DNA of 64,000 nucleotides from Minisyncoccota bacterium (GTDB taxonomy: Bacteria > Patescibacteriota > Minisyncoccia > UBA6257 > JAGOQP01), in assembly GCA_041661795.1 (NCBI GenBank), contig JBAZTS010000002.1, positions 36,263 to 100,262 of the forward strand, in the 5' to 3' direction. The notes beneath the pieces were generated by a model, which had not been told where the DNA came from, ran no database searches, and saw only the letters and a list, made by a program, of their open reading frames with translations. The position numbers were made by a program, and so were the translations under genes. Shown one piece after another: positions 10,364 through 57,417 of the stretch (the first letter of the stretch is position 1; each line of letters opens with the position of its first letter).

Positions 10364-10420
10364 ATTTTTGAACTAATTTTTAAGATTTACAAAAACCCCT
10401 TTTGGGGTTTTTGTTTTTTT

Positions 10421-10451
10421 ACCCCCACACTAATGGAATTAGTGTGGGGGT
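10421..10451. repeat. GC-clamped palindrome CCCCCACACTAAT-gga-ATTAGTGTGGGGG (family copy 1)
   Basis: 13-bp perfect arms. It ends about 9 nt before a TATACT box upstream of hpf. Related copies at 15334-15362 and 37311-37369. Confidence 0.8.
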
Positions 10452-10469
10452 TTATGGTAATATACTGGG

Positions 10470-15280: not shown

Positions 15281-15333
15281 ATGAGATTATTATATCACAA
15301 TGGTGATTTTTATTCACTAAGATTGTGGATAAA

Positions 15334-15362
15334 TCCCCACACTAATTCTATTAGTGTGGGGA
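15334..15362. repeat. GC-clamped palindrome TCCCCACACTAAT-tct-ATTAGTGTGGGGA (family copy 2)
   Basis: 13-bp perfect arms between the lepB-like stop and the pilin-like start. Adjacent to a TGTGGATAA box at 15324-15332. Confidence 0.8.
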
Positions 15363-15367
15363 TAAAC

Positions 15368-16012: not shown

Positions 16013-18334
16013 ATGTTAAGCGACAATATACGCAATTTTTGTATTATAGCCCACATAGATCACGGCAAATCTACATTGGCTGATAGGTTGCTTGAAATTA
16101 CAGGAACTATAGATAAGAGGAAGATGAAGAACCAATATCTTGATCAATTGGAATTGGAAAGAGAAAGAGGGATAACTATCAAAATGGCTCCTGTCCGCAT
16201 GCTCTATGCGCTGACTAACGCCGACTCTACGCCGACTGACGCAGACAATAAGAAATTAGATAATGCGAGTAGTCAATTATTGTATGAAGATTTAACCTAT
16301 AAAATAAGAGGAGTGTTGTTTGGCGTAAAGAAAAAAATAGGACTTGGTCATAAAGAAGTTATTTACCAAAAGGCCATAGAAGAAGAATTGACAAAAGAGA
16401 ACATACCTTTTGAAAAAGAAAAAATAATTAATATAGAACTTGATAATAAAAGTCTTGGCGTATACAGACCAGATTTTGTTATTGATAATAAAATTATATT
16501 AGAGATAAAATCTTTGCCTTTTATTGGAGATGTTGAGAAAAGGCAAGTTTGGACATATCTTAAGGGATCAGAATATAAATTGGCTTTATTAGTCAATTTC
16601 AATTCTAGAGATATTGATATTAAAAGAGTTGTGTATGATACAGCCAGAGAAATTCAGCGTGAGTCAGCGTTTAGTCAGCGTAAGTCGGCGCAGGTTGAGC
16701 AGTATGTGCTCAACCTGATAGACACTCCCGGGCATCCGGATTTTGGTTATGAAGTTTCCAGAGCTTTGGAAGCGGTTGAGGGGGCAATTTTGTTGGTTGA
16801 TGGAATGCAAGGAATACAAGCACAAACGTTATCTAATTTTTATGCTGCCAAAAAAGCCGGACTTACAATTATTGGCGCGGTTAACAAAGTGGATTTAAAT
16901 ATTCCTGACATAGATAAAGTTGTAATGGAAACAGCGGAGCTAATTGGTTGTGGGCCAGAACAAATTCATAAAATATCAGGAAGAACAGGAGAGGGAGTTC
17001 AACAGCTTTTGGGAGCAGTTATTCTTAGAATCCTACCTCCAAAAGCTGTAATTCCCAATTTCCAATTCCCAATTTCCAATTTTGGAAGGGCATTAATATT
17101 TGATTCTTTTTATGACGACCACAAAGGAATTATAGCCAGTGTCAGGGTATTTAATGGAGAATTTAATCAGTTTGATGATGTGGTTTTGGTGGCTGCTAAA
17201 GAAAAATTTAAAACAAAAGAAGTCGGATATTTTTCTCCGACCCTAAATCCTTCAAAAAGAATTTTAGAGGGAGAGATAGGTTATTTGGTTACCGGGATAA
17301 GAGACCCGTATAAAATAAAAATCGGTGACACGGTAATAGGTCACAAATCACAAGTCGCGCATCACGAATCGTATGCTTTGCCCGGATACAAAGAACCAAA
17401 GCCGGTGGTGTTTGTTTCTTTCTATCCAGACAATCCGGATGAATATGATGATTTAAAAAAATCTTTGGAAAGATTAAAGCTTAACGACTCTTCTTTTGCT
17501 TTTGAGCCGGATTTAAATGAAGTGTTGGGCAGGGGATTTAAAGGAGGATTTTTGGGAAAGCTTCATTTTGAAATAATTTCTCAGCGTCTTGAAAGAGAGT
17601 TTGGAATAAAAACAATCACATCTTTTCCTTCGGTCAGTTATAAAATAAAAACTTCTTCCAAACACTTAGCTCATCTAAAATTGGACGAAGATGGATTTTT
17701 CATAGCGTATAATCCCAAAGATATTCCTGAAGAATTTGAAAAGATATTAGAACCGATGATAAAAGTTGAAATTGTTTCATCACAAAAAATATTGGGAACA
17801 GTTTTGGGACTTAAAGATGCTTTTCGTTGGGAATACATAGAGACCCAACAATTGGGAGAAAAAGTTATTATTAAAACCAGAATGCCCTTGGCTGAGCTTA
17901 TCTCGGATTTTGACGACCAGTTAAAATCGGTTTCAGGTGGATTTGCTTCTTTTAGTTATGAAGAAGACGGCTATCAACAGGGCGATTTAATTAGGATGGA
18001 TATTTTAGTGGCAGACGAAATAGTTCCTGGGCTTTCTAGAATTCTTCCCAAAAAAGACATAGAATATCCGGCCAGGAAAATGGTTGTTCGCTTAAAGGAA
18101 GTATTGCCTCATCAGCAATTTACCCAAGCTATTCAAGCCAAAGTCGGAGGGAGAATTATAGCCAGAGAAACTATTGCGGCTTTAAGAAAAGATGTGACCG
18201 GATATCTTTATGGAGGAGACAGAACAAGAAAAATGAAACTTTGGAAAAAACAGCAAAGAGGCAAAAAGAAACTTCTTTCTATGGCCAAAGTGACCATATC
18301 TCCAGAAAACTTCAAGAAACTTCTTTCAAAATAA
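16013..18334 (+). CDS. lepA: Elongation factor 4 (LepA) interrupted in frame by a 162-codon nuclease cassette
   Basis: IIAHIDHGKSTLADRLL, RERGITIK, LIDTPGHPDF, NKVD and the C-terminal LepA domain (YGGDRTRKMKLWKKQQRGKKK). 773 aa versus about 600 aa for canonical LepA. Confidence 0.95.
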   Translation: MLSDNIRNFCIIAHIDHGKSTLADRLLEITGTIDKRKMKNQYLDQLELERERGITIKMAPVRMLYALTNADSTPTDADNKKLDNASSQLLYEDLTYKIRGVLFGVKKKIGLGHKEVIYQKAIEEELTKENIPFEKEKIINIELDNKSLGVYRPDFVIDNKIILEIKSLPFIGDVEKRQVWTYLKGSEYKLALLVNFNSRDIDIKRVVYDTAREIQRESAFSQRKSAQVEQYVLNLIDTPGHPDFGYEVSRALEAVEGAILLVDGMQGIQAQTLSNFYAAKKAGLTIIGAVNKVDLNIPDIDKVVMETAELIGCGPEQIHKISGRTGEGVQQLLGAVILRILPPKAVIPNFQFPISNFGRALIFDSFYDDHKGIIASVRVFNGEFNQFDDVVLVAAKEKFKTKEVGYFSPTLNPSKRILEGEIGYLVTGIRDPYKIKIGDTVIGHKSQVAHHESYALPGYKEPKPVVFVSFYPDNPDEYDDLKKSLERLKLNDSSFAFEPDLNEVLGRGFKGGFLGKLHFEIISQRLEREFGIKTITSFPSVSYKIKTSSKHLAHLKLDEDGFFIAYNPKDIPEEFEKILEPMIKVEIVSSQKILGTVLGLKDAFRWEYIETQQLGEKVIIKTRMPLAELISDFDDQLKSVSGGFASFSYEEDGYQQGDLIRMDILVADEIVPGLSRILPKKDIEYPARKMVVRLKEVLPHQQFTQAIQAKVGGRIIARETIAALRKDVTGYLYGGDRTRKMKLWKKQQRGKKKLLSMAKVTISPENFKKLLSK
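16208..16693 (+). mobile_element. In-frame cassette encoding a GxxExxY / PD-(D/E)XK nuclease domain, flanked by imperfect inverted word-repeat arms
   Basis: Arms 16208-16246 (gcgctgactaacgccgactctacgccgactgacgcagac) and 16655-16693 (cagcgtgagtcagcgtttagtcagcgtaagtcggcgcag) are about 80% complementary. Cargo carries GHKEVIY and PDFVI...LEIK. No stop and no in-frame ATG. Confidence 0.7.
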
Positions 18335-18362
18335 TTTTTATTTGTGTCTTTTTTTAAATAAG

Positions 18363-18459
18363 CTTTAGGAAAGATTTTGAGGCCATGCGGAAGACGGCGG
18401 TCTGAGCTAGAGGGATTTTTCAGCAGAAAAATACCCGTGCCTAAAAATTTTTTCTAAAG
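18363..18459 (+). repeat. 97-nt structured motif, copy A (three-helix element between lepA and the ftsB-like gene)
   Basis: 81/97 identical to the reverse complement of 46834-46930. The central 32 nt are identical. Five compensatory pair changes between the copies. Confidence 0.75.
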
Positions 18460-18511
18460 CGGATTAGTATTATTGGTTGTAAGTTATTGGCTGTCTTGTT
18501 ATTATTTACTT

Positions 18512-18787
18512 ATGAGTGTTAAGAGGGCTGTTTGGCTGACGGTTTTTGGTTTGTTTTTGCTACTTTTGTGGGTTAATTTATTTGTCATATTTAAAGAATT
18601 AAGAAAGTTGTCTTTGGAATACAAGCAAGTGAGTGAAGATTTTGTGAAACTGGAAGATGAAAACAAGATGATAGAAAGAGATATAGCTTTTTATTCTTTT
18701 CCGGCTAATTTAGAAAAGAATTTAAGAGAGAAATTTAATTATAAAAAAACGGGGGAGAAAATGATTATTGTTGTTCCGGGAAATTAA
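18512..18787 (+). CDS. Septum formation initiator (FtsB/DivIC-like) protein
   Basis: Single N-terminal TM segment followed by a coiled coil (LRKLSLEYKQVSEDFVKLEDENKMIERDI). Start placed at the ATG at 18512. Confidence 0.6.
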   Translation: MSVKRAVWLTVFGLFLLLLWVNLFVIFKELRKLSLEYKQVSEDFVKLEDENKMIERDIAFYSFPANLEKNLREKFNYKKTGEKMIIVVPGN

Positions 18788-19385: not shown

Positions 19386-19456
19386 AGCGGGATACGGGAA
19401 TCGAACCCGCGCTTCAACCTTGGGAAGGTCGTGTATTACCACTGTACTAATCCCGC
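19386..19456 (-). tRNA. tRNA-Gly (anticodon CCC)
   Basis: Reverse complement GCGGGATTAGTACAGTGGTAATACACGACCTTCCCAAGGTTGAAGCGCGGGTTCGATTCCCGTATCCCGCT folds as a cloverleaf. The anticodon loop is TTCCCAA. Confidence 0.9.
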
Positions 19457-22030: not shown

Positions 22031-22073
22031 TTTTAGCTTTGACTTTTTCGATGTTGAGTTGTATTATCTTAAA

Positions 22074-22424
22074 AGATAAGTGAGTGATTGCCCTGACATT
22101 TGTTGGGGAGGAAAGTCCGGACTCCCATCTCCGACGTAACGTCGGAGTAAACGTATTCGCTAACAGCGAACTATCGCAAGATAAGAGGTGCGAACAGAGA
22201 CGAGTCCTAATGGAAACATTAGGGGTGAAACGGTCCCGACGCCTATTTCGGGTTAGGGACTCCGACATCCGCAAGGATCGTCGGAGCTAAATCCTTGCGG
22301 GGTGCAAGACCGTATCCGCCCAGGGCGGGTGAGTCGCTTGAACCTGAGAGTAATTGAAGGTCCAGACAAATAATCACTATCCCGACGTAACGTCGGGACA
22401 CAGAATCCGGCTTATAGCTTATCT
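22074..22424 (+). ncRNA. rnpB: RNase P RNA (bacterial type A)
   Basis: GGAGGAAAGTCCGGACTCC near the 5' end and ACAGAATCCGGCTTA near the 3' end. P1 pairs agataag with cttatct. GC-rich island followed by a terminator. Confidence 0.9.
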
Positions 22425-22506
22425 AAACATATCAAGAATCTCTCCTTAACGGGGGGATTTTTGATTGATTTATTAAGGGTTTTTTGATACTTTTAACAAG
22501 TTGCTT

Positions 22507-27781: not shown

Positions 27782-27852
27782 TGGGAGATCGTCTAATGGT
27801 AGGACAGCGGCCTTTGAAGCCGTGAATCGGGGTTCGAATCCCTGTCTCCCAG
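27782..27852 (+). tRNA. tRNA-Gln (anticodon UUG)
   Basis: TGGGAGATCGTCTAATGGTAGGACAGCGGCCTTTGAAGCCGTGAATCGGGGTTCGAATCCCTGTCTCCCAG folds as a cloverleaf. The anticodon loop is CTTTGAA and the T-loop is GGTTCGAATCC. Confidence 0.9.
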
Positions 27853-39272: not shown

Positions 39273-39278
39273 ATCAAT

Positions 39279-39309
<31 letters not shown>

Positions 39310-46817: not shown

Positions 46818-46833
46818 GGGTTTTATTATTTCG

Positions 46834-46930
46834 TTTCAGAAAAGGTTTTGGGGCACGGGTATTTTTCTGCTGAAAAATCCCTCAAGCTCAGCCCGTCGGC
46901 TTCCGCACGGTCCCAAAACCTTTTCTAAAA
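46834..46930 (-). repeat. 97-nt structured motif, copy B (ends 16 nt upstream of the DUF192 start codon)
   Basis: Its reverse complement aligns without gaps to 18363-18459 (81/97). Changes in the outer stem and the inner hairpin are compensatory. Confidence 0.75.
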
Positions 46931-46955
46931 CTACAAATATGTTAAAATCATTATT

Positions 46956-55467: not shown

Positions 55468-56607
55468 TTAATCGGTATATGTCCGTGACCGACGTAGTCG
55501 GTGGTATCGTATAGCAAATCTGTGGGCTTCGTTTCTTAACGAAAGTAATGTATTTTTAACATCTTCGGGGATTTGGCTCAAGCTGATAGGGGATTTTGAA
55601 TAGGGACTGTAAATCAATCCTTTTGTTTGTGATCTTTTATATTTCTTGCCAACATCGTTAATTAACTTACCATTACAATTAGAACGATCGTTGTAATTGT
55701 AATGGTGTGGATTATTACCCACAGATTGCAATTTGCCCACGTTTAGTTTTGCTAGAGCTATCATCGGAATCTTAATTGTTTTGAGTTGTGAGATTTGTGA
55801 TTTTCCTCCGTCAATGATAATTAAATCCGGATATTTCCATTCTTTGTGGTTAAGGCGTCTTTCTATAATTTCTTTTATTGAAGCCGGGTCATTGGCTCCT
55901 TTTATCGTTTTTATTTTAAATTTTCTGTAAAGATTTTTATTAGGTTTATTTCCGATAAACGTTACCATTGAGCCAACTGACAAACTACCTTGGGTATTGG
56001 AAATGTCGTAGCACTCAATATGTGTTTTTTCTCCATTATATAAACGAAGAAAAGTTTTTAATCCATTAACCACCTGGATGTATTTTTTTACTTCGATATT
56101 ATGAGCGGAACATAACCCTAAGTGATAATACAAGCACGGCTTTTCCGGTTTATTTTTACATGTGCGATAGGGGAATATTCTTCTGATTATCAATAAGAGA
56201 TGCTTAATCTCTTTTGCGTCTACAAACGGGCCAACAAAATCGGCTTTAAATTTTTTTGTTTGGTGTGTTAAAAGCACTCTGGGGTACTTTTCGTCGGTAA
56301 AAGCTATATACAAAAAATCCTTGTCATCTTTAAGTTCAATGTTATATTTTGGCTGATACTGTCTAACTAATTTTCTTTCTAAAATCAAGGCGTCTTTTTC
56401 AGATGGGGTTTCTATAAAATCTAAGTCAGCTACTTGTTTGTAAAAATTAATAGAAGCATTCTCTTGTCTAGAAAAATGCGATTCTATTCTCTTTTTTATA
56501 TTAATAGCTTTTCCGATATACAAAATCTTCTCATTCTTATCTTTGAAAATATATACTCCCGGTTTCTTAGGAAGTGCTTTTATCTTATTCTTCAGGATTG
56601 TTTTCAC
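55468..56607 (-). CDS. uvrC: UvrC-like excinuclease subunit, short form (GIY-YIG plus RNase-H-like endonuclease region; no UVR or HhH2 domains seen)
   Basis: PGVYIFKDKNEKILYIGKAINIKKR (GIY-YIG), IECYDISNTQG, PDLIIIDGGKSQ, IALAK and RNEAHRFAI. 379 aa versus about 600 aa canonically. Contains the palindrome at 55669-55706 in frame. Confidence 0.8.
   Translation of the reverse strand: MKTILKNKIKALPKKPGVYIFKDKNEKILYIGKAINIKKRIESHFSRQENASINFYKQVADLDFIETPSEKDALILERKLVRQYQPKYNIELKDDKDFLYIAFTDEKYPRVLLTHQTKKFKADFVGPFVDAKEIKHLLLIIRRIFPYRTCKNKPEKPCLYYHLGLCSAHNIEVKKYIQVVNGLKTFLRLYNGEKTHIECYDISNTQGSLSVGSMVTFIGNKPNKNLYRKFKIKTIKGANDPASIKEIIERRLNHKEWKYPDLIIIDGGKSQISQLKTIKIPMIALAKLNVGKLQSVGNNPHHYNYNDRSNCNGKLINDVGKKYKRSQTKGLIYSPYSKSPISLSQIPEDVKNTLLSLRNEAHRFAIRYHRLRRSRTYTD
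55669..55706. repeat. Palindromic element copy a (inside uvrC, in frame)
   Basis: accattacaattagaacgatcgttgtaattgtaatggt. On the minus strand it encodes part of NNPHHYNYNDRSNCNGKL. Confidence 0.85.
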
Positions 56608-56644
56608 TGTTTTTTTATTTTTATCCTTATCTTAATCTTAATCT

Positions 56645-56682
56645 ACCATTACATTTAGAACGATCGTTCTAAATGTAATGGT
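56645..56682. repeat. Palindromic element copy b
   Basis: accattacatttagaacgatcgttctaaatgtaatggt is a perfect 38-nt palindrome. It ends 2 nt from the stop of the 56685-57245 gene. Confidence 0.9.
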
Positions 56683-56684
56683 GG

Positions 56685-57245: not shown

Positions 57246-57269
57246 AACAATATTATATCATCATTTATT

Positions 57270-57306
57270 ACCATTACAATTAGAACGATCGTTCTAATTG
57301 TAATGG
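57270..57306. repeat. Palindromic element copy c
   Basis: accattacaattagaacgatcgttctaattgtaatgg lies 24 nt upstream of the 56685-57245 gene start. Confidence 0.9.
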
Positions 57307-57417
57307 AGGGAGTATATATGATTAAGAATATTAAATAATTATCATAGAGTTATTATGATTATAGATTGATTTTATCGTTTTAATTAAAGAGTGCCTTATA
57401 AATTAGCACGGACCGCT

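Follow-up and report, generated by a model that had tools for sequence, protein, structure and literature searches.

A 99-bp base-paired intergenic repeat, probably a mobile interspersed element, in a genome of the Patescibacteria

The window analyzed here, i.e., the whole 64,000-nt stretch of a 156-kb contig, carries two copies of a 99-nt repeat (copies A and B), and a third (copy C) lies on a different contig of the same MAG (Table 1). The copies occur in three gene contexts. (i) Copy A lies in sense between co-directional genes, 28 nt after the stop codon of lepA and 17 nt before the -35 box of the promoter of an FtsB-like gene; as an earlier note on this DNA had it, the ATG of the latter (position 18512) follows 52 nt downstream. 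(ii) Copy B takes up the greater part of the 138-nt spacer that separates the divergently oriented FKBP and DUF192 genes and ends 16 nt before the DUF192 ATG (46817), a distance that was also given correctly before. (iii) Copy C is located between two co-directional genes, is antisense to both, and lies 16 nt after the stop codon of a lamin-tail-domain gene and 7 nt before the -35 box of a strong promoter (TTGACT-17-TGnTATAAT). Pfam searches recovered the neighbors named previously (LepA; DivIC, below the cutoff; and DUF192) and added FKBP. The genes flanking the three copies share no function.

Table 1. Coordinates and properties of the repeat copies, their helices and variable pairs, and the nearby promoter-like sites (window coordinates unless indicated)
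Feature	Position	Strand	Details
Copy A of the 99-nt repeat	18362..18460	+	Covariance model, 113.6 bits
Copy A, P1 5' arm	18362..18383	+	22 nt; pairs with 18439-18460
Copy A, P1 3' arm	18439..18460	+	
Copy A, hairpin P2	18387..18407	+	2-bp base GC/GC, 4-bp tip AGAC/GUCU, loop GGCG
Copy A, hairpin P3	18412..18436	+	GGGAUUUUUC-AGCA-GAAAAAU(A)CCC; invariant in all three copies
Core, 32-nt run	18410..18441 (copy A)	+	Identical in all three copies
Copy B of the 99-nt repeat	46833..46931	-	Covariance model, 113.8 bits
Copy B, P1 5' arm	46910..46931	-	
Copy B, P1 3' arm	46833..46854	-	
Copy B, hairpin P2	46886..46906	-	Tip AGCC/GGCU, loop GACG
Copy B, hairpin P3	46857..46881	-	Invariant
Copy C of the 99-nt repeat	L032 7644-7742	-	Full length; covariance model, 109.7 bits
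Pair 1:97 (97-nt numbering)			C-G in A, U-A in B
Pair 12:86 (97-nt numbering)			A-U in A, G-C in B
Pair 18:80 (97-nt numbering)			A-U in A, G-C in B
Pair 11:87 (97-nt numbering)			G-U in A, G-C in B
Pair 32:39 (97-nt numbering)			A-U in A, C-G in B
FtsB-like gene, promoter-like site	18477..18505	+	TTGTAA-17-TGnTATTAT; -10 ends 6 nt before ATG; downstream of copy A
DUF192 gene, -10-like site	46825..46830	-	AATAAT; 7 nt before ATG, 2 nt downstream of copy B
FKBP gene, -10-like site	46943..46948	+	TGnTAAAAT; 7 nt before ATG, 11 nt outside the copy B 5' end, on the other strand
lepA, -10 box			TATACT; 7 nt before ATG

LepA/EF4 (window 16013-18334, plus strand) owes its length of 773 aa to a PDDEXK_3 (GxxExxY) nuclease-like domain inserted in the GTPase domain (residues 93 to 206); this architecture recurs in more than half of the 120 best homologs, all of CPR/Paceibacterota type, some of which are named only "GxxExxY protein" by NCBI. 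Next to copy C (L033 10001-12508; contig Ga0172379_10001246 of the same MAG), a gene for a 247-aa hypothetical protein is followed by a bAvd gene and one for a reverse transcriptase (RT), a set that constitutes a diversity-generating-retroelement-like cassette; a 58%-identical homolog of the 247-aa protein in another genome (L036) likewise precedes an RT. About 5 kb beyond this cassette, two LAGLIDADG ORFs (in the ENA version) lie in a stretch with no other called genes, which may be an intron-bearing rRNA gene. The same MAG also encodes an isoleucyl-tRNA synthetase-like protein of 1,180 aa with a His_Phos_1 domain within the class I synthetase core (L033 4233-7775).

Copies A and B align without gaps over the 97 nt first reported, with 81 of the 97 columns invariant, and an exact-match search bore out the complete identity of the central 32 nt: the window contains the 32-mer GAGGGATTTTTCAGCAGAAAAATACCCGTGCC at just two places (18410-18441 on the plus strand and 46852-46883 on the minus strand), and none of 100 shuffles contained it. 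The closing stem, previously put at about 21 bp, is present but measures 22 bp, and because one invariant G-C pair lies just outside the original ends, the unit is 99 nt rather than 97 nt long. It consists of a 22-bp terminal inverted repeat (TIR) around a 55-nt asymmetric core. The 22-nt termini, which read GYTTTAG...CTRAARC, are complementary in all three copies (97% of cells paired). Similarity between the copies stops at the 5' end, and on the 3' side it tails off after about 9 nt more (109-nt arms); apart from these 9 nt, the flanks are unrelated. In each of the three copies, one frame of the named strand (that given in Table 1) stays open over 31 codons, but no frame has a start codon at its head, and we do not regard the repeat as peptide coding. 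No direct repeat flanks copy A, B, or C under any choice of boundary, so that the earlier remark that no target-site duplication (TSD) is visible was correct; this counts against a classical MITE.

A covariance-model search with filters off, a check proposed in the earlier note, recovered no window copies beyond A and B, and 18.5 kb of extra sequence at both ends of the same contig yielded none either; the genome nevertheless holds a further copy, C, which was the sole locus obtained from a junction-pattern scan of JGI metagenome contigs. Its contig and the window belong to one MAG, assigned to Candidatus Paceibacterota, with the NCBI locus-tag prefix WC705 (WC705_03260 adjoins copy C, and WC705_01635 and WC705_01825 are window proteins), and both contigs are found in ENA assembly ERZ27249449 and Logan run SRR6484324. 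GenBank proteins MFA6136034-MFA6136345 are also from this MAG. The common prefix, assembly, and run rule out an origin of copy C from a second organism. Thus, about 103 kb of a single genome (the window, the 18.5 kb of extensions, and a 20.7-kb locus around copy C) contains three copies. The Logan short-read contigs of A, B, and C end inside the core, where 31-mers stop being copy specific, as is expected of a genomic repeat; the 99-bp repeat breaks short-read assemblies at each copy.

Searches elsewhere recovered nothing comparable. Among 185,579 species genomes, the pattern TGCGGAAG-N6-16-CTGAGCTNGAGGG gave 20 chance hits, every one of them in an unrelated GC-rich taxon and none matching the model (best score, 15.6 bits); pattern scans of IMG/VR were empty save for one chance hit; and the sole BLAST match in phage and plasmid collections, to the terminase gene of a mycobacteriophage, spanned 33 nt and was due to chance. 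The repeat therefore appears to be confined to one lineage, and to one genome, in the collections searched, which are incomplete in that the metagenome scan missed the window's own contig, apparently held by JGI. An Rfam 15 scan of the window at the gathering threshold returned RNase P RNA and two tRNAs and left the element unmatched, and at E <= 10 the element region drew only eukaryotic snoRNA/miRNA noise of 10 to 17 bits, in keeping with the previous failure to fit it to a known riboswitch consensus. The RNase P RNA is of bacterial type A (window 22072-22430, plus strand; 138.8 bits), and its cmscan alignment shows insertions and deletions against the model consensus; the tRNAs lie at 19386-19456 (minus strand) and 27782-27852 (plus strand).

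Comparison with relatives provided information on the history of one of the sites. The lepA-ftsB spacer is 53, 36, and 47 nt long in three syntenic relatives, versus 177 nt here, and the orthologous ftsB-like genes have a TATAAT 7 to 9 nt before the ATG. Contigs of relatives collected via LepA (64 to 72% identical) contain no copy by two covariance models, with filters on or off, or by nhmmer --max, and the same models and nhmmer found none in contigs collected via the copy C neighbor protein (58 to 65% identical); the weak model hits in relatives are ordinary long hairpins that lack the core. Site A is hence empty in three syntenic, though distant, relatives, and a gain at this site in the present genome is the parsimonious reading but is not proven. 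Homologs of the copy C neighbor have no element nearby, and synteny is not conserved there. None of the DUF192 homologs exceeds 40% identity. We also observed small free-standing GIY-YIG and PDDEXK_3 genes in relatives (L024 13662-13913 and L027 8662-9060), inserted in an ftsB-PGK region whose synteny is otherwise kept; selfish endonuclease genes appear to move in the genomes of these relatives.

The element folds into a three-way junction, in which P1 is the closing stem of 22 bp, P2 is a short hairpin with an interruption, and P3 is a hairpin of 10 bp. ViennaRNA placed this three-helix fold well below shuffled controls (z = -4.8 for copy A and -6.3 for copy B), and RNAalifold independently predicted the same consensus fold. 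All of the pair switches listed in the earlier note (1:97, 12:86, 18:80, 11:87, and one in the inner hairpin) are present. Its count of five compensatory changes between A and B holds for four, which are double-sided, whereas the fifth, 11:87, only goes from wobble to Watson-Crick. The inner-hairpin switch (33:40 in the 99-column numbering) sets copy A apart from both B and C, which have C-G. Two departures had escaped mention: copy B has an A.C mismatch at pair 20:78, and pair 17:81, a G-C in B, is a G.A in A (both in the 97-nt numbering). The third hairpin, described as invariant, is so in all three copies, as is the 2-bp base of P2. When the three copies are aligned, standard pairs account for 98.2% of the 114 pair cells, and seven pairs (six in P1 and one in P2) are changed on both sides; only 1 of 500 column shuffles reaches this paired fraction together with this count of double changes, and slid registers give 0 to 2 such pairs, statistics of covariation that are weak in that they come from three copies in one genome and are not a phylogenetic test. 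The earlier claim of selection for pairing stands to the extent that double substitutions keep pairing beyond what shuffles or slid registers do.

The pairing belongs to one particular strand. Substitutions are mostly transitions, with P1 pairs shifting along A-U/G.U/G-C, and there are five G.U pairs on the named strand versus one on its complement; two of them, in P1 of copy A, make its named strand fold better. The named strand folds better than the complement in all three copies (RNA energies of -35.5 versus -25.5, -44.2 versus -41.4, and -47.0 versus -36.5 kcal/mol in A, B, and C, respectively), and DNA parameters agree. Together with the maintained pairing, this indicates that the single-stranded structure appears to be under constraint and suggests that a folded single strand, of DNA or RNA, is the form that matters. 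The constraint is uneven: 16 of the 44 P1 columns vary versus 5 of 55 in the core (Fisher P = 0.0012), and the invariant run of 32 nt is itself improbable (permutation P = 0.0016). Pairing of one particular strand is thus maintained, with the core more constrained than the arms. Termini less conserved than the core are the reverse of what is usual for transposase-bound TIRs, and a core more conserved than its stem is the pattern of a functional RNA.

Analysis of the promoters placed copies A and B outside their neighbors' leaders. Hexamers resembling -10 boxes occur 6 to 8 nt before the start codon in 18 of 71 genes, versus about one gene at each other offset, and the 18 include each of the four genes next to copies A and B. 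This suggests that leaderless mRNAs are widespread in this genome; a full-text literature search found no paper that combined leaderless mRNAs, promoters, and Patescibacteria. Given such start-proximal boxes, copies A and B lie upstream of their neighbors' promoters and outside the 5' UTRs. All three copies have a neighboring gene's -10 or -35 box at a distance of 2 to 39 nt, and no promoter or terminator travels with the element in a conserved form, there being no -10 box at a constant distance from the three copies. Scans of both strands gave no terminator-like site at the 5' or the 3' end of the element, the sole hits being a 5-bp stem in the core, and no expression platform (terminator or start-sequestering helix) was found at any of the copies. 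As a separate observation, upstream of dnaX (39273-39300, minus strand), CTTTATA is repeated four times in tandem, giving four phased TATACT boxes.

We consider the element probably to be a lineage-specific, non-autonomous small interspersed repeat of the MITE/ERIC/RUP/BOX/Correia kind. It is represented by at least three insertions in AT-rich intergenic spacers, with no fixed orientation or position relative to genes, and the MITE that the earlier note had entertained as its alternative fits better than a regulatory RNA, given the dispersed copies, their unrelated contexts, and the empty site. Copy number, contexts, empty site, maintained pairing, and strand asymmetry all come from tool results. 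MITE-type repeats are AT-rich and intergenic, with TIRs and a strongly base-paired structure, and affect the mRNAs with which they are cotranscribed (PMC3049150, PMC10969869). Our full-text literature search found no paper describing such repeats in Patescibacteria, and the two papers in which MITEs and Patescibacteria both appear name each a single time; we regard this one as a new repeat family, with three copies in one genome, within a known kind of element.

Its resemblance to strict MITEs, such as Correia of Neisseria, RUP of S. pneumoniae, and QMITE2 of Coxiella, extends to the length of about 100 bp, AT richness, lack of coding capacity, TIRs around a core (within a range of 22 to 29 bp), a strongly base-paired transcript, and several dispersed intergenic copies in either orientation. 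It differs in having no TSD, no cognate IS or transposase in the available sequence, termini less conserved than the core, three known copies, and a CPR host. A transposase, an HUH or RAYT enzyme, or a longer element with the same termini was looked for and not found in the about 103 kb. The lack of a TSD, the lack of a transposase, and a core conserved above the termini are atypical for a MITE, and we therefore keep in view a functional RNA or a recognition module inside the repeat. REP/REPIN-RAYT systems and the palindromes of IS200/IS605 propagate as folded single strands, without TSDs and with strand asymmetry, and the REPIN hairpin is about 100 nt long. These constitute a mechanistic analogy and not a case of membership: no RAYT or TnpA gene was seen in the about 103 kb analyzed, no conserved GTAG-type tetranucleotide occurs at the flanks, and REPINs conserve their arms (REP units) and vary the loop, the reverse of the present pattern. 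REPINs normally number tens to hundreds of copies. ERIC copies, like those described here, show structure-preserving substitutions. ERIC/IRU and BOX are likewise imperfect palindromes of about 100 to 130 nt, intergenic, often cotranscribed, and variable in orientation, but they have simple or modular hairpins instead of a three-way junction and come from a different phylum; they are absent among the Rfam matches, and we set them apart by description, with no direct sequence comparison. Their effects on mRNA have been attributed to the RNA fold (PMC3049150), and the TSDs of MITEs decay with time (PMC10969869).

Under this interpretation, propagation would need one strand to fold into a long stem capped by the three-way junction. 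The conserved core would be the part recognized by an enzyme acting in trans, and the stem would need only to pair; this would explain why the arms drift via A-U, G.U, and G-C while the core stays fixed. The compensatory changes may then have built up along the element's own line of propagation and not under selection for a host function, and effects on the host would be incidental. Copy A is probably cotranscribed in sense as the 3' tail of the lepA mRNA, and copy C would be cotranscribed in antisense after its upstream gene; in these transcripts the 22-bp duplex could serve as a 3'-end stabilizer or as an RNase III substrate. Copy B, placed between two divergent leaderless promoters, is probably part of neither mRNA. 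More generally, this structured and apparently mobile 99-bp repeat shows that elements of its kind persist in the small, streamlined genomes of CPR/Patescibacteria, and if the core is an active RNA or the site of a single-strand-specific mobilizing enzyme, it would offer a handle on the mobility system of an uncultured phylum.

That the termini evolve faster than the core, as in a functional RNA, leads us to retain an alternative that we judge unlikely, namely, that a structured RNA with a function is contained in, or identical with, the repeat: a small RNA would be expressed from every copy, and its conserved three-way-junction core would bind a protein or ligand or self-cleave, P1 would serve only to close the fold, and dispersal would be secondary. 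Hammerhead and twister ribozymes occur in many genomic contexts. The significantly greater conservation of the core, the compensatory changes in the stem (mostly transitions through G.U) and the one in P2, the excess of G.U pairs (five versus one) with the better folding of the named strand in every copy, and the P2 internal loop GGA/GA of copy A, which as read from the sequence could form tandem sheared G.A pairs, are all consistent with such an RNA. Small self-cleaving ribozymes (hammerhead, twister, pistol, and hatchet) share with the element a three-helix junction, a conserved core, covarying stems, and multiple copies per genome in unrelated contexts. Against it, the element brings along no conserved promoter or terminator, which also speaks against the small RNA proposed earlier; copy C is antisense to the sole obvious transcription and copy B sits between divergent promoters; no homolog was found in the other organisms searched; and the covariation statistics, from three copies of one genome, are weak. 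It also appears distinct from the known self-cleaving ribozymes, as no Rfam ribozyme, riboswitch, or sRNA matches even at E <= 10 and the sequence lacks the CUGANGA...GAAA core of the hammerhead. A doubtful variant that combines the two readings is that the invariant 55-nt junction core is a new RNA module, either a self-cleaving ribozyme or a protein- or ligand-binding fold, spread in Patescibacteria by a mobile repeat. Each insertion would then deliver an active RNA, and the conserved core would be explained along with a closing stem that merely keeps its pairing.

Action at the level of DNA, with the 55-bp core as a site for a host protein (a nucleoid protein, regulator, or recombinase) beside promoters, is improbable. 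Its long invariant core and the location of all three copies 2 to 39 nt from a neighbor's -10 or -35 box would suit such a site, but each copy has its own spacing and orientation with respect to the promoters, and where spacers are as short as in this genome, an insertion between genes falls near a promoter in any case. Moreover, the core is not palindromic, recognition of duplex DNA leaves the pairing-preserving double changes unexplained, and relatives lack the element in the same spacer.

The earlier note's main proposal, a cis-regulatory 5' leader or riboswitch controlling the DUF192 and FtsB-like genes, is largely refuted, and we regard it as very improbable: the sense orientation of copies B and A, 16 and 52 nt before the respective start codons, and a weak site resembling a promoter (9 of 12 matches), located within the FKBP gene and upstream of copy B, speak for it, but leaderless-type -10 boxes intervene between the element and both start codons, the ftsB-like genes of relatives keep their TATAAT in element-free spacers of 36 to 53 nt that are too short to hold it, copy C is antisense with no downstream gene, expression platforms and Rfam matches are lacking, the neighboring genes are functionally unrelated, and among DUF192 homologs of at most 40% identity a conserved association is not visible. 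The case carries a warning for motif hunting, as compensatory changes between two intragenomic copies near start codons mimic a riboswitch, and in a genome with leaderless mRNAs a riboswitch-like element close to starts can actually lie outside the transcripts.

Several other candidate identities of the element were rejected. A composite transposon or invertible segment between the inverted copies A and B would span 28 kb of housekeeping DNA that is syntenic with relatives. The termini have a low-complexity likeness to a type II CRISPR repeat (GTTTTAG...CCCAAAAC), but there is no array. In an integron attC, the consensus has R''/R' core sites RYYYAAC/GTTRRRY, a variable center, and a position at the cassette end; the element has ends reading GYTTTAG...CTRAARC, is most conserved at its center, and is accompanied by no integrase or cassette array. 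An intrinsic terminator, in which a U tract comes straight after a G+C-rich hairpin, was dismissed: P1 is AU rich, the named strand continues with CGGAUUAG, CGAAAUAA, or CCAAAUAA, and the scans detected no terminator-like site. A stand-alone sRNA promoter carried by the element is contradicted by unrelated upstream flanks with no constant-distance -10 box, and a similarity to 5S rRNA or SRP RNA gave no Rfam signal.

The window contains two further sets of palindromic sequences. A hairpin, TTTACCCCCACACTAAT...ATTAGTGTGGGGGTTTAT, occurs in two spacers (10418-10455 and 15329-15366), with the copies 92% complementary, and represents either another small palindromic repeat or a terminator common to both sites. 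A near-perfect palindrome of 38 to 46 nt, ACCATTACAATTAGAACGATCGTTCTAATTGTAATGGT, is present in three copies (55662-55707, 56638-56683, and 57263-57308), located inside uvrC, between uvrC and the gene for a PaaX-like regulator, and upstream of the regulator, in the vicinity of uvrA and uvrB; its center, GAAC-N4-GTTC, resembles a Cheo/LexA-type SOS box, and these palindromes may be operators.
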